From assembly GCA_000004985.1 (NCBI GenBank), contig GG738895.1: a stretch of DNA of 64,000 bases; one strand, 5' to 3'. This document shows positions 26,921 to 61,418 of this stretch, in pieces. Numbering within the stretch: the first letter of the stretch is position 1; each line of letters opens with the position of its first letter. The notes beneath the pieces are model-generated. The model had not been told where the DNA came from. It saw only the letters and a program-made list of their open reading frames with translations, and did not search any database. Made by a program: the position numbers and the translations under genes. The DNA comes from Naegleria gruberi. Taxonomy: Eukaryota.

Positions 26921-27832
26921 ATGATTCAATTCTTGGATCCAAATGTTGTGCAATTTGAAATTTTACCTCATCTCGATGATCGATCCGTTATTTCACTCCT
27001 ATCGACATGTAAAATTGTCAATCAGGTAATTTCTATTCCGGACTATATCGAAACAAAATTGAAAATAATGGATGAAGAAATTTTGAGTCAGAAATTCAAT
27101 GAGTTGGAACAAAGTCCAATCCAAGTGAATAGAATTAATGAAATATTTAGATTAGCATATTTGAATTTTAGAGAAGGAATGTTTCAAACTGAAAAGCAAT
27201 TGTTAGGAACAGTTAAAGTGGATGAGGCACAATGTTATGGAAAATTGAAATCTCAATATACTCTTTTGCAGAGATATGTTTTCAAGAATTCCGACAAATT
27301 ATCACCACACTGTAATAGGAGTGTTTTTTCAGGTTCAACAGGATTTTGGAATTCTCATAGTGTTGATTTTAAAATCTCAAAAGAGAATACTGTATATTAT
27401 TGGTCCATTGTCCTTACAGCATTTGATCGTAAGATATCAAATAGCTGGGCAATACTTGTAGGTTTTGCTGAAGAGGATGCTGCCTCATCATTATCTAAAA
27501 GCTGGATTCCATCTGGATATTGTGTCAAATCAAATGCAATACTTGAAAATAGTTATACATCATACACAGAGAGCCTTGTGAATACGGAAGGAGATGTCAT
27601 TGGAATTGAGTGCTATGTCCAAAACAAAACAGTCTATTTCAATGTTTACTCTCCTTCGAGGAACCATCAGACCTTTCAATTCAAATCTGTGAATAGTAAT
27701 ATAGTACCAATGGTATCTATGGTACACTCTCAATCACTCCAATTACTTTCATTACTTCCGTGGGATGGGCATGTGGAAAGCTTGAAATCCTTTGGAGAAT
27801 GTGCAACAAGGATTTGTACAGCAGAAGAATGA
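26921..27832 (+). CDS. F-box / SPRY(B30.2)-domain protein (module gene A)
   Basis: The N-terminal F-box-like motif is VVQFEILPHLDDRSVISLLSTCKIVNQVI. The C-terminal SPRY-like pattern is WSIVL...WAILVGFAEED...GYCVKSN...GDVIGIECYVQNKTVYFNV. About 90% identical to the minus-strand copy at 52502..53413. Confidence 0.7.
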   Translation: MIQFLDPNVVQFEILPHLDDRSVISLLSTCKIVNQVISIPDYIETKLKIMDEEILSQKFNELEQSPIQVNRINEIFRLAYLNFREGMFQTEKQLLGTVKVDEAQCYGKLKSQYTLLQRYVFKNSDKLSPHCNRSVFSGSTGFWNSHSVDFKISKENTVYYWSIVLTAFDRKISNSWAILVGFAEEDAASSLSKSWIPSGYCVKSNAILENSYTSYTESLVNTEGDVIGIECYVQNKTVYFNVYSPSRNHQTFQFKSVNSNIVPMVSMVHSQSLQLLSLLPWDGHVESLKSFGECATRICTAEE

Positions 27833-31874: not shown

Positions 31875-32077
31875 TGACATTGAATTGAAATATTTGAGAT
31901 ATTAAGCCTATTAAAGTACAAATTTCTGTCAACACGCTTATTTTTTTGTTTATGAATAGATTTCTACTCATATGCTTATCTTTTGCACATATTAAGTTTT
32001 ACAGCTGTCCTGACCAATGGTTTAAAAAATCTCTTATTAACAAATCTTTCAGATTCCTATTGGTCATTGTAAAAAAA

Positions 32078-33580
32078 ATGTTTAAACAACTTGATCACGA
32101 TTCCTTGGTCAATATTATTGGATTTCTTAACCTTTCTGATGTATTGGAAAATTTTGCCATCATCAATTCCGAAATAAATCAACTTTTTAATGATCGGTAT
32201 GGATACTTGATCTCTTTGATCACAGATAGGATTTTATTCTCGGAAGAACATTTTCTAGCCTTGTTCAATTTTTTAGATAAGAATTTTCAAGTTGAATCAA
32301 TACTAAATGAAGAGGAGAGGGAAGTTATTAATTGTACAGCTTTGAGTAGAATATGTGGGGAGGAAAATCATGATGAGAGGAAGGTGATTGAAAGAGTCTT
32401 GTCAGAGCAGATTAATTGTGTCCAGATTGATAATTATTCCAAGATGAAAACATGTTGGAGTTGTTGTAAGAGGCTGAGCTATTTGAATATTCTGTTTATA
32501 CCTAGGGATAGCGATAGAAACATTGAAGTGTGTTATTGCCCTGGTCATGAAAAATACATTCATTACAGTTTGGATAATTACGGAAAGATTATGAAATTGG
32601 CTGACTCCTACGAATTTTCAAAGGATAGAATTTACAAATTTACTTTGCATTATAAGAATGGATTTAACGTAAAGAAAATATATTCGAAACCAAGAGAATC
32701 ACATAGAAATCAAAAAGAAATAATTCTTAAAAACAAGGAATTGTATATTGAGCTTACAGGCCCGACTCTTTACGAGTATAATACTGTAACATTAATTCAT
32801 CAAGAATCAATTAATAGTGACATTACCATTTCAATACCAAACATTCAAGATTCTGAACATTACAAGAACAGATGTTACTTGGTGAGGAGCGATTTATTTG
32901 TCAGACCACTATATGACATTAATTCTTTCTTCCATGATATTTCAGCTCCCAACAAATGTGGAGATTTGAAAGTATCAAGAAAAGGAGATTCTATTTTATG
33001 GACAATCTCAAAGAAAAATATCAAACAATTAGTATTTCGTTTCATGATTACAAATGCTATGATTCTACCACTTTCGTTGCTCCTATTTGTATATTTAACG
33101 GATTATTCTATTGATTCTATATCAACTGATAATATTCAACTCCTTATGCTTTTTCTTGATTCAGTTTCATTAAGTTGCATTTCCCTTTTTGCTTCGGATT
33201 ATTTCACTAACAGATATCGTCGTGTATCAACGGAAAGCTTTAAATTTCTGGCCAAAATTGGTATTGGAAGTTTTTTCCTAAAACTAGTCATTTCATTCAT
33301 TTTTCCATTCCTTTCTCCAGTAGATACAGCAAGTCCATTTAGATTATCATTGCAATTCACAATCCCTTACATATTTTCTTTATTTACAACCATAGTCTCT
33401 TGTTCCTGTTTAGCTCAAACATCATTTTGGTACGCACGTTCCTGTGATTGGTTTTACAATTTGAGGAAGAAGGAATCAGCACTTGGTAGAGTTTTCAATA
33501 AGTGTCTATCTTGGATAACAAACCTCTCCTCCTTGAAAGGTGTAGACAATGACACAGAAGAACGTTGTGTAGTTAACTGA
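32078..33580 (+). CDS. Hypothetical protein: F-box-like N-terminus, Cys-rich middle, C-terminal multi-TM region
   Basis: The first ATG at 32078 gives MFKQLDHDSLVNIIGFLNLSDVLENFAIINSEINQLF (F-box-like). The C-terminal 180 aa are hydrophobic. The track start 31946 (TTG) would place the start only 72 nt from the tRNA-Thr gene. Confidence 0.45.
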   Translation: MFKQLDHDSLVNIIGFLNLSDVLENFAIINSEINQLFNDRYGYLISLITDRILFSEEHFLALFNFLDKNFQVESILNEEEREVINCTALSRICGEENHDERKVIERVLSEQINCVQIDNYSKMKTCWSCCKRLSYLNILFIPRDSDRNIEVCYCPGHEKYIHYSLDNYGKIMKLADSYEFSKDRIYKFTLHYKNGFNVKKIYSKPRESHRNQKEIILKNKELYIELTGPTLYEYNTVTLIHQESINSDITISIPNIQDSEHYKNRCYLVRSDLFVRPLYDINSFFHDISAPNKCGDLKVSRKGDSILWTISKKNIKQLVFRFMITNAMILPLSLLLFVYLTDYSIDSISTDNIQLLMLFLDSVSLSCISLFASDYFTNRYRRVSTESFKFLAKIGIGSFFLKLVISFIFPFLSPVDTASPFRLSLQFTIPYIFSLFTTIVSCSCLAQTSFWYARSCDWFYNLRKKESALGRVFNKCLSWITNLSSLKGVDNDTEERCVVN

Positions 33581-33611: not shown

Positions 33612-34388
33612 ATGCAACAAGATCAAGAAGATGCCACAATAGTTTTCCTGCATGATTTCGCTTTCTATAACCAAAATTCTTCCTCGGAATACTTGGTCAA
33701 TCTCTTGAAGAAAAACCTGTCAAGGCCAAGGACAAGATTTAACATGAAAAAAGTTGACAGTTTCCAAGATTTGGAATTGAGAGAAGATTTACTACGAGGA
33801 GTGTATGGATATGGATTAAAACAATTATCAGAAATTCAAACTAAATGTATCATGCCAATAATATCATCCGAACCACCACTAGATGTTGTTTGCATTTCAA
33901 GCTCGGGGACTGGAAAGAAAACTGCATTCTCAATTGCTCTTCTCCAAAGAATAGACTTGGATCATCAAGCGTACTCTAAAGGAGCACCTCAAGCTCTAGT
34001 TATTACACCTACGAGAGAAATGAGTCAAGTCATTTCTAATCACATCAAGAAATTGGCTCATTATTTGGATGTCAAAGTATTACCTTTCCATGGAGGAGTT
34101 TCAACCAAAGAAACAATCCAAGCTCTAAATGAAATTCAACATGTAGTTGTTGGAACAAACAAATTGATGGACTTAATCAGGTTTAAAGTTTTGAATTTGA
34201 AATATTTGAAACTGATAATAATTGACAGAACAGGTTGTGATTGGCTCGACATGTATGATCAACAGATTTTGAGAATTATCAATGCATCAAACAAATTCAA
34301 CCTTCAAATATGTGTCTTTGGCGATTCGAGAAATATAGGATCGATTGAACAATATCTGAAAGATCCAATTTATTGTGAACTGGAGTAG
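33612..34388 (+). CDS. eIF4A-like DEAD-box helicase N-terminal RecA domain only, degenerate motifs (module gene B)
   Basis: Q-motif-like FQDLELREDLLRGVYGYGLKQLSEIQ, interrupted P-loop SGTGKKTAF, motif Ia PTREM, motif II IIDR (in place of DEAD), and FGDSRN in the SAT position. The protein ends before helicase domain 2 (258 aa). About 45% identical to 45766..46560. Confidence 0.65.
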   Translation: MQQDQEDATIVFLHDFAFYNQNSSSEYLVNLLKKNLSRPRTRFNMKKVDSFQDLELREDLLRGVYGYGLKQLSEIQTKCIMPIISSEPPLDVVCISSSGTGKKTAFSIALLQRIDLDHQAYSKGAPQALVITPTREMSQVISNHIKKLAHYLDVKVLPFHGGVSTKETIQALNEIQHVVVGTNKLMDLIRFKVLNLKYLKLIIIDRTGCDWLDMYDQQILRIINASNKFNLQICVFGDSRNIGSIEQYLKDPIYCELE

Positions 34389-34683: not shown

Positions 34684-35775
34684 ATGGGAAACAATCAACA
34701 ACCCACATCCCAACCACCAGTTTTAAAAGATGGCGCTCTTCCGAGTGTTAGTACTCCATCATCAGCATGTTATGAACGCACATTAATGCAAGAATATTTT
34801 CCTAATAATTGTAAATTAATTCGAGTTTGTGATCATGATGAAGAAAATCGAAGGAAACAAGAGGAGAATTTGAAGAATTATCGGGAGAAATACTTGTCTC
34901 GATGTAATGGAATATTGGAGAAGATGTTACCTGAGGAAATTATTGTTGAAATTTTGTATTACTTGCCAATGAAGAGTTTGATCAAATTACAAATGGTTTC
35001 AAAGAATTTTCGCTTGTATTGGACTGAACTTCCTGGATTGTGGGATAAATTTTCAGATTATCCCAAAATGATGTATATTCCAATGGTATACGAAAGTATG
35101 AGAAGTAATTTTGGATATTATAATGAATTTAGACAAAAATTAATTAATTTACATGAAAAGCCAACACGAAATTTTGATTTTACTGGATATCAATACAAAG
35201 CCATCGTTTTGGGAGATAAAAAGTGTGGGAAAACCATTTTGCATAACAGAGTCTTCAAAGGCGAACCATTTTCTCAAGAATATGTCTATACGATCGGAGT
35301 AGATTTTTCTACCACAATTTCCAAACAAAACATATACATTCAATCTTGGGATACAGGTGGAGATGAAAGATTTAGAACAATTAATATCAATTTCTTTAGG
35401 GGTATGAAAGGCCACTTTTACTGCTTTGATTTGAATAATCACGAGTCATTTGAAGTAATGAAGGACATTTTTCAAGATTGGAAGAATGTATATCTCAAAG
35501 GTGAAGACCTTAGTTCATATTTTACTAAGATTTCATTCGCATTGGTGGGATTGAAATCAGATTTGGAACGCAAAGTATCAAGAGATGAAATTCATGAATT
35601 CTTGGAAAATATTGAACCACTGAAGGATAAGACTTTGCACACCAGTAGAGTCCAATACTTTGAGTTGAGTTCTAAAGAAGATTCAATTTCAGATTTACTT
35701 TTTCCATTTGTCTATAGTTATCATAATGTAATGGAAATACCAAGGCAATATTCAACAAGTATAAGTGAAATGTAA
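34684..35775 (+). CDS. N-myristoylated F-box + Rab-like small GTPase fusion (module gene C)
   Basis: MGNNQQ.. has Gly2. F-box LPEEIIVEILYYLPMKSLIKLQMVSKNFRLYW. GTPase motifs: G1 GDKKCGKT, switch I YVYTIGVDF (Rab-type TIGxDF), G3 WDTGGDERF (Gln replaced by Asp), G4 LKSD (in place of NKxD), G5 SSKE. No C-terminal prenylation motif. Confidence 0.7.
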   Translation: MGNNQQPTSQPPVLKDGALPSVSTPSSACYERTLMQEYFPNNCKLIRVCDHDEENRRKQEENLKNYREKYLSRCNGILEKMLPEEIIVEILYYLPMKSLIKLQMVSKNFRLYWTELPGLWDKFSDYPKMMYIPMVYESMRSNFGYYNEFRQKLINLHEKPTRNFDFTGYQYKAIVLGDKKCGKTILHNRVFKGEPFSQEYVYTIGVDFSTTISKQNIYIQSWDTGGDERFRTININFFRGMKGHFYCFDLNNHESFEVMKDIFQDWKNVYLKGEDLSSYFTKISFALVGLKSDLERKVSRDEIHEFLENIEPLKDKTLHTSRVQYFELSSKEDSISDLLFPFVYSYHNVMEIPRQYSTSISEM

Positions 35776-35924: not shown

Positions 35925-38900
35925 TTAAATCATTAAGAACTGAACAAAGACCACTAAGCACAATACTTCAGTAACAAAATAGCTAGCATTAGCAACAGAA
36001 ACTCTATCCGATTTTCCAGGTGAACCCCTTCTTGATGGTTCTGGAATTGGTTGGGAAGTACTACTTTTTGGTTGTGGAATAGATGGTTGTGGATTAACAG
36101 GACTCTCTCCATTACAATTCATCTCATAAGCTCCAATATCTGGTGCCTTTCCATAATAAGGCATTCCAACATTAGTTCCCTTATCAATCAATGTAATGTT
36201 GCTGTCACATCTCAATCTAAAATCATTAGCCAAATAATCTTTGAAATAATTGGTGGCATTATTGTAATTATTTTCAAAAATGGTGTTTGGTCCAATAACT
36301 GGTTTCCAAATACCTTGGAAATAGCTCCCAACAATTGCAATATAATTGTAATCAGTTTCCCAATATGGAAGAAGATCAAACTTTGCACTAGAAGTTCCAA
36401 TATTCAAGTCAACCAACTGAATAGTATTGTCCAAGAAGGCATTATTCTTCATGGAAACACTTCTTGGATAGTAACTAATCATTGCCGAATCAAAAATTGC
36501 TTGGAATACCAATTCATCAAGAATGGATCTTGTCAACCCTCTTACTTCCTCAATAATTGAAAGACCAGCATTTGAATACGAGAAAGCACCTGTACTGGAG
36601 CTTAATAACCCTCTTTTTGTAACAGCAGTCCAATATGGATAAGCAAGACCATCTTGATCCAATTGAGGAAGAACATAATCTTTGTGAACTGACATGAAAT
36701 TAGTGTCATTAATCACATTGTTAATGAAATTGATAATTTCAGCCTTATCACCACTTGTTAAATCTGAAGCTGTAGAATAAGATCTAATTCTTGATACAAG
36801 AGTTTCATTTTTGGACCAAACTAATTTGTTTCCATTTTCGGTTGGGTTTACAATACTGTTAAAAAGAGTATTCCAATTTGAAGTGGTAGTACTATCTATC
36901 AAAGCACATCTGCTATTATCTGTCTTGACAGCAAATCTCAAAAATGATTGATAGAATTGATTATTATGCAGCACAACTCTAGCAGCATGATTGACACCAA
37001 CTGGACCTCCAATAAAGACATTTCGTCTGAAGATAACTAAACCATTTTGTTCCATCCACATGTTCTGATTACCAAGTTTGTTAATCAATACGTTATCTTC
37101 GAGAACAATGTTATTGATATTGGTAAATTGAATATTATCTGGATGTTGACGATATGAAGTTTGATGCTCAACTCGATTGTTTTTGATTAGAATATTCCAA
37201 TTACTATATGCCAATTGAGTTCCAGAACCAACCCAAATACCATTATTATAATTCTTGTAAATGTACATGTTCTTAATTTGTGAATCGTTCACCATACTTG
37301 CAAAGTTTACACCATTGTTGTGATTATAACTAATCTTGCCGCCATCAACATTAATATTAGTTGCATCTCTGAAACTAAATCCATTTTCACCATTTCCATA
37401 TGAAGAGCAGTTCAATAATTGAACACTATCAGTGAATTGACCAAAAAATCCCATTGAAGCATACTTTCTAAACATCATATCTTGAACAATTAAACCATCC
37501 CCGTAAACTATTGAAATGCCATTGGTCAAGGCAGATGCTTCAAGCATGACACCACTCACCTTAGGATCCTTATCAAGTGAAACTTGAATGATATTTCCTT
37601 CTGCGGTATATTGATTAGCACGAGAGAATGATCCAATATGATTGGCAATAGCATACGAATCTTTCAAGACTATTCCCATTGGAGTAGTAAGTCCTGGCGG
37701 AATGGCATTAATTCCAATAGTATTGGTAGTGGCATTGTAATAGATAATTGTTCGAGGTTGAATGGCATTTCCAAATTGATTGTAATGGTAGAAATCAGCA
37801 CCAACCCAGAAATTATCTGAAACAGGATTTCCTGCAGCATCATATTTGAACATGTCATCAACTTCCAAATAGACTATTCCATTTAAAGTGTATGAAACAT
37901 TCTTTGGAGTGAGATAATTAGTATGATCATATTCATCATCCAAATCATATGGAAGAGGTTTCATTGCCAAACTCAATTTCTCGCCATCTGCATAAATATA
38001 CGAAGTTGAAACTTGAAGTTGACCCTTATAGATGGAAATTGGTGTGGACATGACCTTTTCCAAATTTTTAGGATCAATAATTAATGAACCATCCAAAACT
38101 GCTGAATAAGTTTTGGAATTTCCAGAGGAAGGAGTTGGTGGATTCAAAGGTTTGATAGTAATTGGATGTTTGGAATGGGTTGGGCGATCAAAATAGATTG
38201 ATTCTCTATAGATACCATTTCCAACAATTAAGGTGTCATCTGGAAGTAACATGTATTGAGCTGCATTCAAAGTTGACCAAGCAGAAGATAGACCAAGACC
38301 ATCATTAGAATCGGATCCACTCAATTGATTAACATAGTAGGTCAATCCATTTCTGTTGTGCATTTGTTTACCTTGATAAACAGTAACAGATTGAGATCTC
38401 AAAGTTGCTCCTTTGGAATTTCCTGGATTTCTGTCATAAAAACCAAATTTCAAGATTTTAAACTTTTGAATAGCACTAGAATCGGTATCTGTTACAATGA
38501 CTTGATAATCATTAGCACTGGAACCCAATTTAGCCAACTGAATTGAAATTCCATTTGAAGACCATTCAGCATAAAGTTTGTAAGTGGAATAAAGCAATGG
38601 GACATGAATTAATGCTAATTTGGAGCTAGAATATAAGCGAACAGATTGACCATTCATAATTCTGGTAATGGACATGGTTGGATACAAACTAATCTTGTAA
38701 TAATTGTTTTGGTCAACCAGGAGAACAAAACCAAGATCATAGCTGGTAGATAGAAAACCAGTTTGCAAATTGCTTGAAAATGTAACACCATCAGTAGTGT
38801 CATACGGAGTGTCATAGGTGACAATCGAATCATTTTGATAAATTTGCAACAATTGACTAGCAATACCAACATTTCCTTTTTGGGTATTCCAACCAGCCAT

Positions 38901-39326
38901 GCCATTGCTAAAATTACTCTGCATCAACACCTTCAAACTATTTGGAGTAGGCAATGCAATAGATTGAATAGTAATCATGTGAGTAATGGTTATCTTTTTC
39001 CCATTCACATCATTATACGAAACGTTTCTCATCACCACAGTTTCGCCAATCGATTGTGTACTATAAACCAGAGCTGAATTATAATTATATAAACCAGTTT
39101 TCAATGGAGAACCATCTGCCATTGAATAAGCGATCTGAACTGAAGTTGAAGAATAGGAATCATTGAAATAGGTAATTCTTGGATTTAAAATTACTGAACC
39201 GAATTGATGCATGATAACTTTCTGGATGGGAGTAACGTAGAGTACATCCTGAACAGTTTGTGCATGTGTAACGGTATGAAAAACTGTCAGGAGGAGCAAA
39301 ATGACAAGTGGCAGTTTTGCTTTCAT
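35925..39326 (-). CDS. Secreted right-handed parallel beta-helix protein (pectate-lyase-superfamily-like), Ser/Pro-rich stalk and GPI-anchor-like C-terminus
   Basis: 1133-aa continuous ORF, ATG verified. Signal peptide MKAKLPLVILLLLTVFHTVTHAQ. The central region has PbH1-like repeats (..NNGVNFASMVNDSQIKN.., ..NRVEHQTSYRQHPDNIQFTNINNIVLEDNVLIN.., ..HAARVVLHNNQF..). The C-terminus is NPQPSIPQPKSSTSQPIPEPS.. followed by a hydrophobic tail. Confidence 0.65.
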   Translation of the reverse strand: MKAKLPLVILLLLTVFHTVTHAQTVQDVLYVTPIQKVIMHQFGSVILNPRITYFNDSYSSTSVQIAYSMADGSPLKTGLYNYNSALVYSTQSIGETVVMRNVSYNDVNGKKITITHMITIQSIALPTPNSLKVLMQSNFSNGMAGWNTQKGNVGIASQLLQIYQNDSIVTYDTPYDTTDGVTFSSNLQTGFLSTSYDLGFVLLVDQNNYYKISLYPTMSITRIMNGQSVRLYSSSKLALIHVPLLYSTYKLYAEWSSNGISIQLAKLGSSANDYQVIVTDTDSSAIQKFKILKFGFYDRNPGNSKGATLRSQSVTVYQGKQMHNRNGLTYYVNQLSGSDSNDGLGLSSAWSTLNAAQYMLLPDDTLIVGNGIYRESIYFDRPTHSKHPITIKPLNPPTPSSGNSKTYSAVLDGSLIIDPKNLEKVMSTPISIYKGQLQVSTSYIYADGEKLSLAMKPLPYDLDDEYDHTNYLTPKNVSYTLNGIVYLEVDDMFKYDAAGNPVSDNFWVGADFYHYNQFGNAIQPRTIIYYNATTNTIGINAIPPGLTTPMGIVLKDSYAIANHIGSFSRANQYTAEGNIIQVSLDKDPKVSGVMLEASALTNGISIVYGDGLIVQDMMFRKYASMGFFGQFTDSVQLLNCSSYGNGENGFSFRDATNINVDGGKISYNHNNGVNFASMVNDSQIKNMYIYKNYNNGIWVGSGTQLAYSNWNILIKNNRVEHQTSYRQHPDNIQFTNINNIVLEDNVLINKLGNQNMWMEQNGLVIFRRNVFIGGPVGVNHAARVVLHNNQFYQSFLRFAVKTDNSRCALIDSTTTSNWNTLFNSIVNPTENGNKLVWSKNETLVSRIRSYSTASDLTSGDKAEIINFINNVINDTNFMSVHKDYVLPQLDQDGLAYPYWTAVTKRGLLSSSTGAFSYSNAGLSIIEEVRGLTRSILDELVFQAIFDSAMISYYPRSVSMKNNAFLDNTIQLVDLNIGTSSAKFDLLPYWETDYNYIAIVGSYFQGIWKPVIGPNTIFENNYNNATNYFKDYLANDFRLRCDSNITLIDKGTNVGMPYYGKAPDIGAYEMNCNGESPVNPQPSIPQPKSSTSQPIPEPSRRGSPGKSDRVSVANASYFVTEVLCLVVFVQFLMI

Positions 39327-45765: not shown

Positions 45766-46560
45766 TTACAAATCTTCTAATAATATTGGATCTCTCAAAT
45801 GTTTTTGAATGAACAATTTGGTATCTCGATTTCTTGCACATCCAAAAATACAAATCTGAAGATTTAACTTTTTGGCAATTTTCACAATTTCCTCAACATG
45901 AGCTTGAAAACCATAATTTTGTACATGACTCATCTCCTCAACAATTAACATTTTCAAATATTTCACATTCAGAATATTGCTCTCTATCAAATCTAACAAT
46001 TTCACTGGCGTTCCCACAACTACATGTTGAATTTCTTGCAGAGCTAGCTCTGCAGACCGCATTTGACCTCCATATATCCCAAATACTTTGACACTCATAA
46101 ATTTCGCAAAGGATGCTATAATATGAGAGAGACTTATCGCCATTTCCCTGGTCGGTACAATCACCAATGCTTGAGGGGCACCTTTCGAATATAAATCATG
46201 ATTCAGATCAATTCTTTCAAGAAGGGCAAGTGAAAACCCAACTGTTTTACCAGTTCCAATTTTAGATGTGGACACAACATCAACTGGTGGATAGGATGAA
46301 ATAATTGGCATGATCAACTTTTTTTGCAATTCTGTCATTTCTTTTTTACCATCACTATAAAAACCAGAAAGTAAATTCGCGCGTAAATTTAAATCTTCAA
46401 AAGTTTCAATCTTTTTCATGTTGAATTTTGGTCGTGGAATTGTGATTTGTTTTTTGAAAAGTTTGATCAAGTGTGAAAATTCCGAATTTATATTCGAATT
46501 GCTGTGTATGTCTGTTAGAAGGAGGCGTGTAACACTTTCGTATGTTTCTGCTTGGTTCAT
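45766..46560 (-). CDS. eIF4A-like DEAD-box N-terminal RecA domain only, degenerate (module gene B')
   Basis: FEDLNLRANLLSGFYSDG..ELQ (Q-motif-like), intact P-loop GTGKT, PTREM, motif II IVEE (in place of DEAD), FGCARN. Ends before domain 2. Paralog of 33612..34388. Confidence 0.65.
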   Translation of the reverse strand: MNQAETYESVTRLLLTDIHSNSNINSEFSHLIKLFKKQITIPRPKFNMKKIETFEDLNLRANLLSGFYSDGKKEMTELQKKLIMPIISSYPPVDVVSTSKIGTGKTVGFSLALLERIDLNHDLYSKGAPQALVIVPTREMAISLSHIIASFAKFMSVKVFGIYGGQMRSAELALQEIQHVVVGTPVKLLDLIESNILNVKYLKMLIVEEMSHVQNYGFQAHVEEIVKIAKKLNLQICIFGCARNRDTKLFIQKHLRDPILLEDL

Positions 46561-52501: not shown

Positions 52502-53413
52502 TCATTCTTCTGCTGTACAAATCTTTGTTGCACATTCTCCAAAGGATTTCAGGCTTTCCACATGTCCATCCCACGGAAGTAATGAAAGTAATTGGAGTGA
52601 TTGAGAGTCTACCAGAGATACCATTGGTACTATATTACTATTAACATATTCGAATTGAAAAGTCTGATGGTTCCTCGAAGGGGAGTAAACATTGAAATAG
52701 ACTGTTTTGTTTTGGATATAACATTCAATTCCAATGACATCTCCTTCAGTATTCACACTGTGCTCTGAGTATAATTTATAACTACTTGTAACTGTTGCAT
52801 TCGATTTGATACAATAGCCATATAGAATCCATTTATCATATAGTGATGAGACAGCATCCTCTTCAGCAAAACCTACAATTATTGCCCAGCCATTTGATAT
52901 CTTCCAATCATAAGCTGTAAGTACTATGGACCAATAATATATAGTATTCTCTTTTGAGATTTTAAAATCAACACTATGAGAATTCCAAAATCCTGTTGAA
53001 CCTGAAAAAACACTCCTATTACAGTGTGGTGATAATTTGTTAGAATTCTTGAAAACATATCTCTTTAAAAGAGTATATTGAGATTTCAATTTTCCATAAC
53101 ATTGTGCCTCATCCACTTTAACTGTTCCTATCAATTGCTTTTCTGTTTGGAACATTCCTTCTCTAAAATTCAAATATGCTAATCTAAATATTTCATTAAT
53201 TCTATTCACTTGGATTGGACTTTGTTCCAACTCATTGAATTTCTGACTCAAAATTTCTTCATCCATTATTTTCAATTTTGTTTCGATATAGTCCGGAATA
53301 GAAATTACCTGATGGACAATTTTACATGTCGATAGGAGTGAAATAACGGATCGATCATCGAGATGAGGTAAAATTTCAAATTGCACAACATTCGGATCCA
53401 AGAATTGAATCAT
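52502..53413 (-). CDS. F-box / SPRY-domain protein (module gene A')
   Basis: About 90% identical to 26921..27832. The N-terminal 130 aa are nearly identical and the SPRY region is more diverged. The first ATG at 53413 gives MIQFLDPN.. (the track start is TTG). Confidence 0.7.
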   Translation of the reverse strand: MIQFLDPNVVQFEILPHLDDRSVISLLSTCKIVHQVISIPDYIETKLKIMDEEILSQKFNELEQSPIQVNRINEIFRLAYLNFREGMFQTEKQLIGTVKVDEAQCYGKLKSQYTLLKRYVFKNSNKLSPHCNRSVFSGSTGFWNSHSVDFKISKENTIYYWSIVLTAYDWKISNGWAIIVGFAEEDAVSSLYDKWILYGYCIKSNATVTSSYKLYSEHSVNTEGDVIGIECYIQNKTVYFNVYSPSRNHQTFQFEYVNSNIVPMVSLVDSQSLQLLSLLPWDGHVESLKSFGECATKICTAEE

Positions 53414-53581
53414 TTTTTTTTTGAAAATTGTTTTTTCATAGATCAAAGTTCGTTTTTTGTTTTTTACAATGAACAGTTTTTTGTTATAATTTTTAAATAG
53501 TGAATGGAAAAATTACAACAATTTAAGGAGCTAGCCCAAATGTTTACAACATAACACAATAATTTGAAAGTTTTTAAAAAA

Positions 53582-55018
53582 ATGAAAAAAGTTAAAAAAG
53601 TTAAAAAAGTTAAAAAATCGAAAACTGTCAAGTCATTGGCAGTTGAAGATCAAGTGGTCATACAGGCTGGCCTGTTAGCACCGTTATCATCATCGGATGT
53701 TTTGTTTTATCAAATATTACCATGCTTTCCATTAAAATTGTTATTCGAAACAGCAAGATTAGTTTGTAAAGAATGGAATTTATTTATTGTGGGAAATCAT
53801 AATGATGCTGGTCATGTAAAAGAATATTTTACAGGTCGGTACTCTCTGATCATTCCCCGTGAAAAAGAAGAATCTCTGATGACTTGTATTCGTGCTGGAT
53901 ATTTCCGAAATATAATTCAAAAATTACATTTCAAAGCTTTTGATTCATTTTGTAATCCTTCTATTGTTAGAAACTCAGGAGTGATTGAAATGGTTCCACA
54001 AATTAGTTCAACTTTATTGGATGATTCTTTTCCAAATGTTGAGGAAATTATTATTGGAACTGTCAATTCAGATTCTTGTATTATAAGAGAGGGATTTTGT
54101 AAAAACAAACTGGAAAAGTTGAAATTGTTGAAGATGACCATGCAAAGGGACGTGTCAATTTCTGATATATTTTCATGTGATTTTATGCAAAATTTGACAT
54201 GCTTGAATTTGGATAACTGCTTTATTGATTATACAACAGTTTTACAAATTAGTGAATGTCCACTGAAGAACTTGGAGAAATTGTGCTTAGGATATAATTC
54301 AATAACTCAATTGGGAGCTCTTACATTGTCCAAAAGCAAACATCTTTCAAAATTAACATATTTAGATTTGACTTATAATGACATTGGTGATGAAGGGCTT
54401 AGACATCTTTGTGAAAGTGAAACACTGTGTAATATTTCAAATCTATTATTGGAATTTAATGTAATTTCAGAATTGGAGCCTCTTTTACAAAGCTCCAATA
54501 TGAAAAATCTAGCACATTTGAATTTGTATAGATGTAGTTTGAATTTAAAAAGCTTTATGTCATTGATATCTTGCCCTAATTTACCAAAACTTTCAGAAAT
54601 TAGTCTATACCATGCAGGTTTAACAGGAATGCAAGAATTAGAAACTTCTCACATCATAGTATCCAACTCAATCAATCGACTTGATCTATCCTCTTGCAGT
54701 TTAGATGATTTGGGATTTAGGTGTTTGTTAAATTCCCTCAAATACGACTCCATTACTGAACTAAATCTTAGGTACAATGAAATTGGAAATGAAGGATTGT
54801 TGTGCCTAGCTGAATGTCCCTTCCTGACCAATTTGAGGATACTCGACCTATCTGGAAATCCAATAGATGATGAAGGTGCCCTCTACCTGGCACAAAACGT
54901 TCAATTTCCAAATATTAAGGAATTAATTTTAGAGTTTACCAAAATGACCAAAAATGGCAGTGAAAAATTTTCAGAAATTATTTTACAACGATTCCCAAAT
55001 GTTAATTTAACTATTTAA
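53582..55018 (+). CDS. F-box-like + RNI-type leucine-rich-repeat protein
   Basis: Lys-rich N-terminus encoded by an (AAAAAGTT)n repeat. F-box-like ..LFYQILPCFPLKLLFETARLVCKEWNLFIV. C-terminal RNI-like LRRs (..LDLTYNDIGDEGLRHL..; ..LNLRYNEIGNEGLLCL..; ..LDLSGNPIDDEGALYL..). Confidence 0.65.
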   Translation: MKKVKKVKKVKKSKTVKSLAVEDQVVIQAGLLAPLSSSDVLFYQILPCFPLKLLFETARLVCKEWNLFIVGNHNDAGHVKEYFTGRYSLIIPREKEESLMTCIRAGYFRNIIQKLHFKAFDSFCNPSIVRNSGVIEMVPQISSTLLDDSFPNVEEIIIGTVNSDSCIIREGFCKNKLEKLKLLKMTMQRDVSISDIFSCDFMQNLTCLNLDNCFIDYTTVLQISECPLKNLEKLCLGYNSITQLGALTLSKSKHLSKLTYLDLTYNDIGDEGLRHLCESETLCNISNLLLEFNVISELEPLLQSSNMKNLAHLNLYRCSLNLKSFMSLISCPNLPKLSEISLYHAGLTGMQELETSHIIVSNSINRLDLSSCSLDDLGFRCLLNSLKYDSITELNLRYNEIGNEGLLCLAECPFLTNLRILDLSGNPIDDEGALYLAQNVQFPNIKELILEFTKMTKNGSEKFSEIILQRFPNVNLTI

Positions 55019-55099: not shown

Positions 55100-56123
55100 T
55101 CATTTTATTCTTGGTAATATTGTTAAAATTATATTTAAAAAGCCTTCAGTTTCAATATTGTTTGCATTGATATTGAGATCTGTTAACTGAGATAAGTGAC
55201 TCAATGATTTGGCACCTTCAGCACCAATATTATTTGTACTGATATTCAAAGTGGTCAATTTGCCTAGTTGACTGATATACATTGCTCCAGTGTTTCCAAT
55301 TTTAGAATAACTAATATTCAAGTCTGTTAATTGTGACATTTCGGATATAATTTTTGCCCCTTCATCTCCAATATAATTACAACTAATATTCAAATTATTT
55401 AAATTTTCCATTTGACTAATGAACTTGACTCCAACTACAGACAAATTTGGACAATTCGAAACATCAAGCTTTGTTAACTGTTTAATTTCACTAATTTTCT
55501 CTACAGATCTATCATTAAGATCAGAATATCTTACACGAAGTGATTTCAAAGTTTTTGATTGTGAAATAACATTCATCTGAAATGTTTCATCATTTTCTAA
55601 TGAAAATGCTGAATAACTCAAATCGAGTGAAATCAAATTTTTCATTCCAAATACAGAAAAAGATCCTGAATATCCAATACGATTGCTACATATATTCAAA
55701 CTAGTCAAGTTTGCCATTGTACTGATATGTTTAGCTCCTTCATCTCCAATTGAATTATAACTCAGATCAAGATTGGTCAATTGAGTCAAATTTTGAGAAA
55801 TTAATTGAGCTCCTTTCGTCCTAATTCTACAAACACTATTCCCAACAAGTTTCAATTCAACAATATTCCCAATAATTCCAGATTTAACAATATTTTCCAC
55901 AATTTTATCCTCAACCTCCAAATCAACAGAAAGTTTTGCCCTATTTTTGATTACTTCATGCCAATTACGAGAAATTAATAAACAACTTTGTATAATCATT
56001 GAAGAATCCAAAAAGGTAAGAATTTCATAACAAATATCATCAGGAAATACTTGATTTCGAAATTATTATATAAAAAATTACATAATTTTAGCAATTACAC
56101 TCACAATCAGGATTGGATTTCAT
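55100..56123 (-). CDS. F-box + RNI-type LRR protein; 2 exons (about 56105..56123, 55100..56049)
   Basis: The track ORF starts at TTG inside an F-box. An upstream mini-exon ATGAAATCCAATCCTGATT, followed by a GTGAGT donor and a 55-nt intron ending ATCAAG, restores MKSNPDLFPDDICYEILTFLD..LLISRNWHEVI (a complete F-box). The body has 24-aa RNI-type LRRs (LTDLNISYSKIGNTGAMYISQLGK). Confidence 0.65.
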
Positions 56124-57695: not shown

Positions 57696-59141
57696 ATGTT
57701 CTCGAGAACAAGGGTTATTTTCAAAATAATAATAATAATAATAATTAATGAATTGCTAATAGAGAATATTATATTTTCGGATGATGTTTGTTTTGAAATT
57801 ATTTCCATGATTGATGATTCGTGGTTTATTTTGAATAATTGTTCTTTAATTTCAAAACAATGGTTTAATGTGATCAAGGATCGTTCAAAACTTGTTATTC
57901 AATTTAAAAAAAAATTAACAGAAAAAAGAGTTGAATTATTAATGAAAAGTCAATTCATGAACAGTATTGTAAATGTTAAGTTTTCTTTTGGGTTGCTTAA
58001 CTCTTCAGATAAACTTAAATTCATAAGTGAAATGAAACATTTAACATCACTTGATATTGCTGACAATCAAATTGGTGATGAGGGATCTAAATTCATAAGT
58101 GGAATGAAACATTTAACATCACTTAATATAGATCGCAATCAAATTGGTGTAGAAGGAGCCAAACTCATAAGTGGAATGAAATCATTAATATCACTTAGTA
58201 TTGGTGATAATCAAATTGGTGTAGAAGGAGCCAAACTCATAAGTGGAATGAAACATTTAACATCACTTGATATAAATCGCAATCAAATTGGTGTAGAAGG
58301 AGCCAAATCAATAAGTAGAATGAAACAATTAACATCACTTAATATATATTACAATCAAATTGGTGCTGAGGGAGCCAAATCAATAAGTGGAATGAAACAA
58401 TTAACATCACTTGATATTGGTGGAAATCAAATTGGTGTAGAAGAATCCAAATACATAAGTGAAATGAAACAATTAACATCACTTGATATATATAACAATC
58501 AAATTGGTGTAGAAGGAGCCAAATCAATAAGTGGAATGAAACAATTAACATCACTTAATATTGGTTTCAATCGAATTGGTGTAGAAGGATCCAAACTCAT
58601 AAGTGAAATGAAACAATTAACATCACTTAATATTGGTTCCAATGAAATTGGTGTAGAAGGGTCCAAATTCATACCTGAAATGAAACATTTAACATCACTT
58701 AATATATATTACAATGAAATTGGTGATGAAGGATCCAAATACATAAGTGAAATGAAACAATTAACATCACTTGATATATATTACAATGAAATTGGTGTGG
58801 AAGGAGCCAAATACATAAGTGAAATGAAACAATTAACATCACTTGGTATTAGTGATAATCAAATTGGTGTAGAAGGAGCCAAATTCATAAGTGAAATGAA
58901 ATTATTAACATCACTTGATATTGCTGACAATCAAATTGGTGATGAGGGATCTAAATTCATAAGTGAAATGAAATCATTAACATCGCTTAATGTTAATTCC
59001 AATCAAATTGGTGATGAGGGAGCCAAACTTATAAGTGGAATGAAACAATTAACATCACTTAAAATATATTACAATCAAATTGGTGAAACTTTATTAATGT
59101 CTGTTATATCAATAACAGCTGAGACCAAATCTTTAGACTAA
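57696..59141 (+). CDS. F-box-like + RNI-type LRR protein built from about 15 near-identical 24-aa repeats
   Basis: The N-terminal F-box-like motif is IFSDDVCFEIISMIDDSWFILNNCSLISKQWFNVI. It is preceded by a poly-Ile stretch encoded by an (ATA)6 microsatellite. The body is MKHLTSLDIADNQIGDEGSKFISG repeated with few changes. Confidence 0.7.
   Translation: MFSRTRVIFKIIIIIIINELLIENIIFSDDVCFEIISMIDDSWFILNNCSLISKQWFNVIKDRSKLVIQFKKKLTEKRVELLMKSQFMNSIVNVKFSFGLLNSSDKLKFISEMKHLTSLDIADNQIGDEGSKFISGMKHLTSLNIDRNQIGVEGAKLISGMKSLISLSIGDNQIGVEGAKLISGMKHLTSLDINRNQIGVEGAKSISRMKQLTSLNIYYNQIGAEGAKSISGMKQLTSLDIGGNQIGVEESKYISEMKQLTSLDIYNNQIGVEGAKSISGMKQLTSLNIGFNRIGVEGSKLISEMKQLTSLNIGSNEIGVEGSKFIPEMKHLTSLNIYYNEIGDEGSKYISEMKQLTSLDIYYNEIGVEGAKYISEMKQLTSLGISDNQIGVEGAKFISEMKLLTSLDIADNQIGDEGSKFISEMKSLTSLNVNSNQIGDEGAKLISGMKQLTSLKIYYNQIGETLLMSVISITAETKSLD
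58020..59090 (+). repeat. 72-bp tandem repeat array (about 15 copies) encoding the LRR units of the 57696..59141 gene
   Basis: Direct reading shows a reiterated unit AAACAATTAACATCACTTGATAT..AATCAAATTGGTGTAGAAGGAGCCAAA..ATAAGTGGAATG with greater than 85% nucleotide identity between neighbours. Confidence 0.8.
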
Positions 59142-59287: not shown

Positions 59288-60240
59288 TCACTTACAGATA
59301 TCTTCAAGATGGGATCTTGGAGAGAAGATCAGTGGATGCTTTTGCATGTCAATGTAGAGTAAGGAACGATTGGTGCTCATTTCTGGGAATTCCTTTTCCT
59401 CTAAGGAAAGTTTGAAATGTCTGACAGTGTTGACAATTGACATGCAAAGTTCTAAGGTTGCAATTCTACTACCTGGGCATTTTCTTGCCTTAATTCGCAA
59501 GTTATTTGAAGTAATTGATAGAAAACTTACACCAACACCAAATGGACTGTTTACAAATGAACTCTTCATTGCCAATGGTGAATTTCTTTCATGTCTTTCT
59601 GGAATGAATTCTTGAGCTCGTGGCACAAACTCTTCACTCAAACAAGCACGTCTTTGGAGTGCAATAACTGTTGTACCCTTTGGAATATTTTATCCTCCCA
59701 GTTCTGTATCGTTATTGAGTATTCTTGCCAAAATCCAAAGGGATTGAGGCGTAAAACTTCTTCCACAAAGTTTTTAGTGAGCTTTAGTTTCTTGAATTGC
59801 TCTGCATTTACTAATAGACCGTTCTCTGAAGTAACCTCGTCTAAATTTGGCTCTCCAAATACCTCTAATAGTAGTAAAGTTTTTTTTGGTAATCTGGATG
59901 ATGAGCTAATCTGTACATGACATGACTCATCATTGTCATTGTAATGTCCATTGCAGCTTGAAGGAATGAATTCATAACTGTTCATTCTTTGAACGTTCCA
60001 TTAGCAGTTCATACAATCTTGGCTTTTCGCTTGGGTTGACCTTAAACCTGTTCATTACATAATTTGTACATATTCGAATGATTTTTCACAGGTAAATTCC
60101 ATTCTCTTGTATTCTTTTGTTTTAAAATATTGATACATGGATGGTTTTGTCAATAATCTGGATCTTGTGTTGGTTCTAAGTATTTAATTAATCTTCTTAC
60201 ATTCAATTGACTCAGGAGTTACGACTTGATCTTGGAATTC
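59288..60240 (-). pseudogene. Cytochrome P450 3'-fragment (K-helix to heme-binding loop only), likely truncated remnant
   Basis: ExxR region EEVLRLNP. Meander/PERF ..EFIPERH... A 42-nt in-frame GTAAGT..TTAAG intron must be removed to restore the heme loop: FGVG|ARKCPGSRIATLEL matches FGxGxRxCxG. A frameshift separates the ..HSKDVL and SEEFVP segments. No I-helix or N-terminal half exists, because the upstream gene (60321..) ends immediately 5' on the same strand. Confidence 0.5.
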
Positions 60241-60320: not shown

Positions 60321-61418
60321 TTATAGCATGGTTTTTAGAGTGGCAACAGCATAGAGGAATGGAAAGAGAAGGTCATCATCAGAGCACTCTTCTTTGGAGC
60401 TTAATTCAAAATATTGAACTTTGGTTGTGTGAATTGTTTTTTGTTGAGGCTCTGGCTCGACCATTTTTAGAAAATTGTAAATTTCAAGTCTTGTTACTTG
60501 ATGATCGAGATCTGATTTCAATCCGAGTAAGAGGAAACATCTATCATTGATATTGTAATCTGAAATATCTTTGACTGTCATTTCGTGATAAATTTCAATC
60601 ATTTCCTCAAATGATTTATGACTATTCAAATCAAAACAATACACAAAAACATTAGCTCTCGAATAAACAGATTTGAATAGCGATAGATATGTTTGATTTC
60701 CACATGTATCCCAAATCTTGAATGCAAATTCCGTCCCACTTCCATAAAGGTAATGCTTGTCAATTACTGGGAAAGTTATTGAGGGTGTATAATTTTCCGA
60801 AAATGGTAATTGATTAAAAGCTCTATCAATCAAAGTGGATTTACCACACCCTGATGACCCAACAAATATGTATTGGGCACATTGAGGCAATTCAACATCC
60901 TCATCTATTACAAATCTCTTCAGCAAGACATTTTTAACATTTTCATAACTTTCCATATCAGAAAACATGTACAACATTGGACTTTTTCTCCTCAAATCCT
61001 TCCACAGAACTTCAAATCTGGTCCAATACATTAAAAATCTCTTTGAAACTCGTTGCATTCTCCCTATACTTTCCATATCCAAAAATTGTAAAATGTGTAA
61101 AATTATTTCATGAGGAAAATTCGTCAACCAACCATCCTTCTCCTCACCCTGATTGAAATACTCATCATTGCCTCCATATCCTCTCCTAATTCCATTAAAA
61201 ATTCCTATCGGAAGCAATTCTACATCCGAAACAATAGTAGAAAGAATAGATTTCCTCTTGAATCCTCTTGGTAATTCCAACACGGGAAAATGTAGGGATT
61301 TTCCTGTAGAATAAAGTAAATTTTCAGATTGTTCACGGGAGGGGATTTTATTTTCATCTCTTGCTTGGTGATTCAGAGATGATGATGAGGGCGTCTCTGT
61401 TGATGTTTGTTGTCCCAT
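60321..61418 (-). CDS. N-myristoylated F-box + Rab-like small GTPase fusion (module gene C')
   Basis: MGQQTS.. has Gly2. F-box FPHEIILHILQFLDMESIGRMQRVSKRFLMYW. G1 GSSGCGKST, G3 WDTCGNQTY, G4 LKSD, G5 SSKE. About 35% identical to 34684..35775 with the same domain order. Confidence 0.7.
   Translation of the reverse strand: MGQQTSTETPSSSSLNHQARDENKIPSREQSENLLYSTGKSLHFPVLELPRGFKRKSILSTIVSDVELLPIGIFNGIRRGYGGNDEYFNQGEEKDGWLTNFPHEIILHILQFLDMESIGRMQRVSKRFLMYWTRFEVLWKDLRRKSPMLYMFSDMESYENVKNVLLKRFVIDEDVELPQCAQYIFVGSSGCGKSTLIDRAFNQLPFSENYTPSITFPVIDKHYLYGSGTEFAFKIWDTCGNQTYLSLFKSVYSRANVFVYCFDLNSHKSFEEMIEIYHEMTVKDISDYNINDRCFLLLGLKSDLDHQVTRLEIYNFLKMVEPEPQQKTIHTTKVQYFELSSKEECSDDDLLFPFLYAVATLKTML

Follow-up and report, generated by a model that had tools for sequence, protein, structure and literature searches.

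Proteins that join an F-box to a small GTPase have been described from two groups of Discoba. In the Euglenozoa, TbFRP combines a FYVE domain with an F-box and a Ras-like GTPase, and its authors found no Naegleria ortholog (PMC3593210). In Naegleria gruberi, the re-annotation of the Ras superfamily by Herman et al. 2021 (BMC Biol 19:142, PMC8296547) described three Naegleria-specific, divergent Rab-like subgroups whose conserved N-terminal extension is an F-box (Supplementary Material 4, Fig. S6/S7); one such subgroup, which is not that of the genes considered here, carries a CaaX box, and no relatives outside Naegleria were reported. The same authors described F-boxes fused to Rho, Ran and G-alpha domains, mentioned RhoBTB alongside, and arrived at the idea of 'GTPase-dependent ubiquitination'. 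Here we analyze two genes, designated C and C', in a stretch of 64,000 nucleotides from contig GG738895.1 of N. gruberi (assembly GCA_000004985.1; hereafter the window). They are the same genes as those in the Naegleria F-box Rab-like clades of Herman et al., whose Table S8 lists both accessions (XP_002672750.1 and XP_002672819.1) as 'Rab' with the additional domain 'F-box', and a fusion of this kind has been known from TbFRP since 2005/2013; the claim of a novel architecture, made in the initial annotation of this DNA, is therefore withdrawn, and both the fusion and the ubiquitination idea are already published for exactly these genes. The supplements of that study contain the term 'myristoyl' 0 times, and Gly2 and the state of the G3, G4 and G5 motifs likewise go unmentioned. 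What we add is a Gly2 found throughout the clade, a coupled replacement at Ras positions 116 and 144 with the guanine-specifying residues kept, a variable catalytic position, a Willaertia magna member that extends the clade beyond Naegleria, and likely mis-called starts in a few gene models. Our preferred reading, to which we give a probability of roughly 0.55, is that C and C' are membrane-tethered, nucleotide-conditioned substrate receptors of an SCF (Skp1-cullin-F-box) ubiquitin ligase, a Cul1 counterpart of RhoBTB and Cul3.

RhoBTB is a Cul3 adaptor, and serves as a working analogue for GTPase-conditioned recruitment of substrates and for auto-regulation. Like C and C', it fuses an atypical, hydrolysis-impaired GTPase of the Ras superfamily to a cullin-adaptor module. 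In RhoBTB, however, the module is of the BTB/Cul3 type and the GTPase is N-terminal and Rho-derived, whereas in C and C' the predicted route is through F-box, Skp1 and Cul1 and the GTPase is C-terminal and Rab-derived; the sequence relationship between the two is limited to the GTPase superfamily. A further parallel is provided by Legionella Dot/Icm effectors with Rab and F-box/U-box domains (Gomez-Valero et al., bioRxiv 10.1101/350777), which resemble C and C' in carrying a Rab-like domain and an F-box in one polypeptide and whose bacterial hosts live in amoebae, including Naegleria. These effectors are bacterial and secreted, whereas C and C' are eukaryotic, and a scan of prokaryotic genomes (185,579 species, with the closer alignment A4) found no relative carrying the signature peptides of the clade and gave no link to the effectors.

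The euglenozoan FRPs are similar to C and C' in several respects. For this comparison the sequences from Euglena, T. brucei, T. cruzi, Bodo and T. borreli were rebuilt from the supplement of PMC3593210, with imperfect quality of the optical character recognition. In both groups, an F-box lies to the N-terminal side of a divergent, Rab-related GTPase, there is no prenylation motif, and the catalytic Gln is replaced (by H, E, D or A in FRP). Both also possess a separate N-terminal device for membrane targeting, namely FYVE in FRP and the candidate Gly2 in C and C'. The Euglena gracilis FRP has G4 GLKGD and G3 DASGDP, which deviate as in the Naegleria clade. In contrast, G4 is lost altogether from kinetoplastid FRPs, while its Lys and Asp are retained in the clade, and the FYVE domain of FRP has no counterpart in C and C' (no Pfam match; R[RK]HHCR is absent from every clade member). 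A profile-profile alignment (hhalign) gave a colinear match between the clade and FRP that begins in the F-box and extends as far as G4 (probability 99%, E 2e-18), with the linker left without a confident alignment. Yet, when FRP sequences (phmmer) or an FRP hidden Markov model (HMM) were used as queries, ordinary Rabs occupied ranks 1-75 and the best clade member was 76th, with 34.6 bits as compared to 55 bits for the top Rab. A specific relationship with FRP is thus unsupported, as FRP queries prefer ordinary Rabs over the clade, and we treat it as a lead only; these comparisons speak decisively neither for nor against a common origin.

The two genes are located as follows.

34684..35775, + strand: coding sequence of C, 363 amino acids (aa), single exon; XP_002672750.1 / EFC40006.1 / D2VT17, 'rab family small GTPase' (list of open reading frames and 100% full-length identity).
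60321..61418, - strand: coding sequence of C', 365 aa; XP_002672819.1 / EFC40075.1 / D2VT30, 'small GTPase' (identical).

By accession match, both proteins are from N. gruberi NEG-M. Each is encoded by an uninterrupted open reading frame (ORF) that begins at the first available start codon after an in-frame stop; the start context of C is A-rich (aaaaaATGg), and the window as a whole is AT-rich (GC 31-38%). C and C', the sole copies of this gene type in the window, align over 274 aa with 36% identity (E 1e-44) and share the order Gly2, poorly conserved spacer, F-box, linker of ~55 aa, and Rab-like GTPase. In a Pfam scan the F-box and the Ras-family domain exceeded the curated cut-offs in both proteins. 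For the Ras family (PF00071) the scores were 83.2 bits for C and 80.9 bits for C' against a cut-off of 21.6, so that the GTPase region is a P-loop GTPase, as the initial annotation had supposed. The domains and motifs of this region, the latter placed by alignment to H-Ras and Rab1A, are these.

35197..35679, + strand: Rab-like small GTPase domain of C (aa 172-332); Pfam Ras E 2e-23, PDB sequence matches, Foldseek, predicted local distance difference test (pLDDT) >90.
35212..35235, + strand: G1/P-loop of C, GDKKCGKT, with an intact Walker A (GxxxxGK[ST]); Lys occupies the positions of Ras G12 and G13, and Cys that of V14.
35287..35307, + strand: switch I/RabF1 of C, YTIGVDF, with the G2 Thr retained.
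35350..35367, + strand: G3 of C, DTGGDE, with DxxG retained and the catalytic Gln replaced by Asp.
35548..35562, + strand: G4 of C, GLKSD, in which Leu takes the place of Asn, and Lys and Asp are retained.
35665..35676, + strand: G5 of C, LSSK, with Ras T144 replaced by Leu and S-S-K instead of S-A-K.
60384..60872, - strand: Rab-derived GTPase domain of C' (aa 183-345); Pfam Ras E 1e-22.
60837-60860, - strand: G1 of C', GSSGCGKS, with Walker A retained.
60765-60785, - strand: switch I of C', PSITFPV, with Ser at the switch-I Thr position.
60693-60710, - strand: G3 of C', DTCGNQ, with DxxG retained and the catalytic Gln replaced.
60510-60524, - strand: G4 of C', GLKSD, as in C.
60393-60404, - strand: G5 of C', LSSK.

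A sequence search of the PDB with C returned Rab/Ypt proteins in 60 of the 60 matches listed, the best being Rab1, Rab3, Rab8 and Ypt1. The AlphaFold2 (AF2) model of C, in which the GTPase has a pLDDT >90, was most similar by Foldseek to GTP-bound Rab9, Rab11, Ypt7 and Rab8 (target-normalised template-modelling score ~0.8). In the aggregate, sequence matches and predicted model confirm a Rab fold for C. The signature motifs RabF1-F5 of canonical Rabs read IGVDF, KLQIW, RFRSIT, YYRGA and LVYDIT. At these positions C has IGVDF, YIQSW, RFRTIN, FFRGM and YCFDLN, of which F1, F3 and F4 are recognisable, and C' has ITFPV, FKIW, TYLSLF and VYSRA, with the signatures mostly lost. A hydrophobic triad is another known Rab feature, and its positions are occupied in C by Phe208, Trp222 and Phe238. 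Canonical Rabs (Rab1/Ypt1, Rab8, Rab3) are the best match in sequence and fold, and C keeps IGVDF together with the F3-like RFRTIN and the F4-like FFRGM. Unlike canonical Rabs, C and C' possess an N-terminal extension of ~170 aa with the F-box, have the catalytic Gln and the G4 Asn replaced, and lack a C-terminal Cys; relative to Rab1, short insertions also precede the G4 strand and lie in the G4-G5 interval. No prenylation motif (CC, CXC, CCXX or CaaX) was found at the C-terminus of either protein, neither of which has a Cys in its last 12 residues; C ends in ...YSTSISEM, with no Cys after residue 247, and C' in ...VATLKTML. The motif calls of the initial annotation were therefore accurate as far as they concern switch I (YTIGVDF in C and the diverged SITFPV in C', both at the expected place), the replaced catalytic Gln, the LKSD at G4 and the missing C-terminal Cys box.

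We used an exhaustive HMMER search of 1.84 billion representative sequences to collect relatives. Eight proteins were found at E<=1e-30, and about 25-27 relatives align from the F-box through the C-terminus; N. gruberi, N. lovaniensis and Willaertia magna account for those that can be named, and metagenome contigs for the others. Word-indexed homolog searches, which returned 2 proteins with C and 4 with the clade alignment, were too insensitive for this clade. Eight further N. gruberi members listed by Herman et al. align with C and C' and share the N-terminal extension. The fusion of F-box and Rab-like domain in one ORF is kept across at least 3 genera, and by these alignments the clade occurs in Naegleria and also in Willaertia (family Vahlkampfiidae). 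This conserved fusion and the continuous ORFs argue against the F-box and GTPase parts being separate genes. Ten long, high-scoring matches (P0005, P0008 and others) were considered as relatives and set aside as irrelevant, Pfam detecting in them tandem Ras domains only and no F-box. One 291-aa protein from a JGI metagenome contig, P0124, has at its N-terminus a motif like that of an F-box, and its Rab domain, with DTFGQE, TKLD and a Cys near the C-terminus, is near-canonical; therefore, F-box-Rab fusions with an intact catalytic Gln also exist.

Motif conservation was surveyed in 27 clade sequences, with totals that vary from position to position. Walker A is kept in 22 of 24 members, and the position of Ras Thr35 is Thr in 23 of 26 (Ser in C'). 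The equivalents of Asp57 (20/26), Gly60 (24/27), Lys117 (26/26), Ser145 (23/25) and Lys147 (20/25) are likewise retained, as is Asp119 in 23 of 26 members, the other 3 having Glu. Bulky residues (Lys, Arg or Trp) occur at the Ras G13 position. The phosphate-, Mg2+- and guanine-binding machinery of the clade thus appears largely intact. Position 116 is a different matter: none of the aligned members has Asn there (L 14, M 6, T 5, F 1), and Thr is absent from position 144 (L 12, I 7, V 4, Q 2). The side chain of Asn116 in Ras forms hydrogen bonds with Thr144 and with the P-loop backbone. The coupled aliphatic replacement at 116 and 144 looks, from the alignment, like a compensated repacking of this contact, and weaker nucleotide binding or fast exchange is possible. 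LKxD was also found in 6 of 65 ordinary Rab-like comparators.

Position 61 behaves differently from position 116. It may be D, N, E, H, S, K, G, I, L or Q within the clade, and on account of this variability the constraint on the catalytic Gln looks relaxed and not redirected to one residue. Slow intrinsic hydrolysis of GTP is a plausible consequence of Gln loss. The initial annotation had taken the joint loss of the G4 Asn and of the Gln to be selected; only the replacement of Asn holds throughout the clade, and the variable Gln position fits relaxed constraint better than selection.

The F-boxes of the 2 proteins are positioned as follows.

34927..35028, + strand: F-box of C (aa 82-115), LPEEIIVEILYYLPMKSLIKLQMVSKNFRLYWTE; Pfam PF00646 E 9e-7, PF12937 E 3.4e-5.
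60990..61127, - strand: F-box of C' (aa 98-143); Pfam PF12937 E 9.2e-7, PF00646 E 2.6e-6.

The scores bear out the F-box noticed earlier in both proteins: C reached 29.0 bits with PF00646 (cut-off 20.5), and C' reached 29.0 bits with PF12937 (cut-off 24.3) and 27.6 bits with PF00646 (cut-off 20.5). When the N-terminal 111 aa were used as a single-sequence query of the PDB, no F-box protein was matched, and a profile of the 53-column F-box segment of the clade was required. This profile gave 31 matches at E<=1. All but two carry names of F-box proteins or of fragments, from Skp2 and KDM2A/B, that contain the F-box, and many of these structures include Skp1 (FBXW8, KDM2A/B, FBXL5, Cdc4, FBXW7, FBXL2, FBXO4, Skp2 and Legionella AnkB are among the proteins matched); the two exceptions are chains whose names do not mark them as F-box proteins. 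Because the profile matches nearly only solved F-box proteins, we strongly infer that the clade F-box binds Skp1.

The third element, the N-terminus, is shown here for C with the two segments of lower conservation.

34684..34707, + strand: N-terminus of C, MGNNQQPT; the Gly2 codon at 34687-34689 is a candidate N-myristoylation site (pattern check, clade comparison).
34708..34926, + strand: N-terminal spacer of C (aa 9-81), weakly conserved (clade alignment A1).
35029..35196, + strand: linker between F-box and GTPase of C (aa 116-171), containing a long helix (139-158) besides short strands (AF2 model, pLDDT 57-75).

Residues 1-32 of C are disordered in the AF2 model (pLDDT <50). According to the initial annotation, both proteins begin with the myristoylation consensus MG(N/Q)xxx[ST]; this is so for C' (MGQQTST) but not for C, which has Q6 and P7, and only the Gly2 is shared by the two. 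By the PROSITE pattern PS00008 (G-{EDRKHPFYW}-x(2)-[STAGCN]-{P}), C' also passes, its N-terminus MGQQTSTE having S6 and T7; in all, 12 of the 19 N-terminally complete clade members pass. MG[QN] begins 17 of these 19; in an 18th, P0152, the sequence MGQAPTRK lies eleven residues into a probably over-extended model. By comparison, MG starts were found in 1 of 123 other Rab-like matches and in 4 of 58 window ORFs, C and C' being two of those four. The 30-80 residues after Gly2 are essentially unalignable across the clade, and the retention of Gly2 beside such sequence therefore argues for selection on this residue. An internal conserved MG[QN] was also observed in P0154, P0155 and XP_002677491.1 (the corrected model of Herman Table S8); in these and in P0152, the model starts 7-24 residues upstream of it. 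Since Gly2 is conserved throughout the clade, the internal Met is suggested to be the true start in all four. For the clade, an N-myristoyl group at Gly2 in place of the absent prenyl anchor is the most economical reading of these patterns. Support for myristoylation appears good in C' and in most clade members, and C is an uncertain case.

From these elements the following scheme may be assembled. A myristoyl group on Gly2, in place of a C-terminal geranylgeranyl group, would tether the protein to a membrane, and the F-box would dock it on Skp1 and thereby on Cul1-Rbx1. The Rab-like domain would still bind guanine nucleotide and would be mostly in the GTP form, because the catalytic Gln is lost and exchange is probably faster without the G4 Asn. 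Partners that become substrates for ubiquitination would then bind to the switch/interswitch face of this domain, which in C includes Phe208, Trp222 and Phe238.

Several observations weigh against this scheme. What it says of Skp1 binding, nucleotide binding, hydrolysis and lipidation is prediction throughout. In the AF2 model of C, F-box and linker reach a pLDDT of only 57-75. C, because of its Q6 and P7, fails both MG(N/Q)xxx[ST] and PS00008, and the latter is failed by four other Gly2 bearers as well (MGQSQP.., MGQKQVP..). Walker A or DxxG is lost from P0118, P0152 and P0022. In Rab1a N124I, a change of the G4 Asn to an aliphatic residue, nucleotide binding is abolished, and the clade domain could by analogy be nucleotide-free. 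TBC-type RabGAPs (Rab GTPase-activating proteins) provide a catalytic Gln in trans; loss of the Gln in cis is therefore no proof of a GTP-locked state. Finally, Herman et al. 2021 described birth-and-death evolution in these clades, with pseudogenes or disrupted copies, and function may be lax or heterogeneous.

Among the other explanations, the one that survives best reverses the roles of the two domains. The GTPase would be the output, and the F-box would couple it to SCF for rapid turnover of the protein itself, proteolysis replacing hydrolysis as the off-switch, so that a GTPase which is constitutively active and insensitive to GAPs would stay short-lived. Auto-ubiquitination within SCF is common among F-box proteins, and loss of the catalytic Gln would create a need for another off-switch. 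The authors of the TbFRP work connected its F-box with fast proteolysis and with a protein population that is dynamic, yet also called the role of this F-box 'unclear' (PMC3593210). Such turnover is compatible with the adaptor scheme and does not exclude it; taken as the explanation in its own right, we consider it unlikely, if worth keeping in view.

Doubtful too is a broader proposal that draws on the FRP comparison above, in which the Gly2 clade would be a FYVE-less sister of FRP within an ancient, Discoba-wide family of F-box GTPases. The membrane anchor would have been swapped in this family (FYVE, N-myristoyl, CaaX), and a GTP-locked, fast-exchanging domain would gate SCF ubiquitination at membranes, with proteolysis as the off-switch. 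If this were true, the coupled 116 L/M and 144 L/I/V would be a new, structurally compensated guanine pocket.

We think it rather improbable that C and C' are decaying or pseudo-GTPase paralogs, that is, either nucleotide-free static scaffolds or drifting birth-and-death genes with little function. The aliphatic G4 residue recalls the binding-defective Rab1a N124I, and the bulky residues at the Ras G13 position, the variable catalytic position, the loss of G1 or G3 from several relatives, the disrupted copies of Herman et al. 2021 and the loss of most Rab signatures from C' (ITFPV instead of IGVDF) all point in the same direction. However, both ORFs are intact over ~1.1 kb in a genome of 33% GC, and most of the clade keeps Walker A, DxxG, K117, D119 and G5, which would be unexpected without nucleotide binding. 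The coupling of L/M at 116 to L/I/V at 144, moreover, looks like compensation and not decay.

Skp1 might also be bound outside of SCF. The yeast F-box protein Rcy1, which interacts with Ypt31/32, takes part in endosome-to-Golgi recycling together with Skp1 but not as a subunit of SCF. By this precedent, C and C' would belong to a cullin-free Skp1 complex as Rab-like regulators of trafficking and not as ubiquitin-ligase subunits, and the RabF1, F3- and F4-like motifs and hydrophobic-triad-position residues of C would accord with such a role. Yet the clade is without prenylation and most of the Rab features related to GDI and REP, and a role in ubiquitination is favoured by Herman et al. 2021; we regard a cullin-free complex as quite improbable.

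Base specificity in Ras-like proteins is set by the G4 Asp (Ras D119N switches to xanthosine triphosphate, XTP), and variants such as TKxD in Rho and dynamin GTPases and AKxD in septins are normal. An altered nucleotide state, as the initial annotation had proposed for the LKSD motif, with use of XTP or ATP and not GTP, is accordingly very improbable and is rejected: G4 is non-canonical in every clade member, but the specificity-setting Asp is kept, together with Lys117 and the G5 loop (S-x-K), in C, C' and 23 of 26 relatives, and ordinary Rab-like comparators include LKxD, as noted above.

Three paralog pairs lie on opposite strands of the window. The first (26921-27832, +, and 52502-53446, -) is 89% identical and gave a weak SPRY match only, the second (33612-34388, +, and 45766-46560, -) is 48% identical, and the third is C/C' at 36%. 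A recent segmental duplication was considered as the origin of C and C' and rejected, given their 36% identity, the widely different ages of the three pairs and the lack of a mirror order. The unequal divergence of the pairs and the lack of mirror order suggest repeated or old inverted duplications and not a single event. The ORFs of the second pair, ~260 aa each, consist of an N-terminal DEAD/DEAH domain alone (Pfam E 5e-20 and 1e-22), with no Pfam match to a helicase C-terminal domain in either; by eye, the ORF at 33612-34388 has IIDR at the expected position of the DEAD motif. Because the truncated form is conserved in two paralogs, this pair suggests a real DEAD-domain-only family.

Other neighbors of the two genes were also noted. 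Upstream, the ORF at 31946-33580 (+) has an F-box-like N-terminal motif (LDHDSLVNIIGFLNLSDVLENF...), a hydrophobic C-terminal half and no Pfam match. Convergent with C, and with its stop codon ~150 bp from that of C, is an ORF of 1133 aa at 35925-39326 (-), which has an N-terminal signal-like segment, a sub-cut-off match to a right-handed beta-helix, and a hydrophobic C-terminus. Adjoining C', at 59288-59641 (-), is a C-terminal fragment of a cytochrome P450 (Pfam E 7e-8), the remainder of which lies outside this ORF; the gene may contain an intron or a frameshift, or may be a pseudogene. A cluster of interrelated leucine-rich-repeat (LRR) proteins, 25-46% identical to each other, is located at 53564-55018 (+), 55100-56011 (-) and 57696-59141 (+). 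Two of the three ORFs were scanned, 55100-56011 and 57696-59141, and both gave strong LRR_6 (RNI-like) Pfam matches; the N-terminal part of the latter is also reminiscent of an F-box, with a score below Pfam significance.

In regard to the family as a whole, C and C' would matter more only if biochemistry showed a nucleotide-gated recruitment of substrates. Fusions of an F-box to a GTPase suggest a direct coupling of small-GTPase state to cullin-RING ubiquitination.

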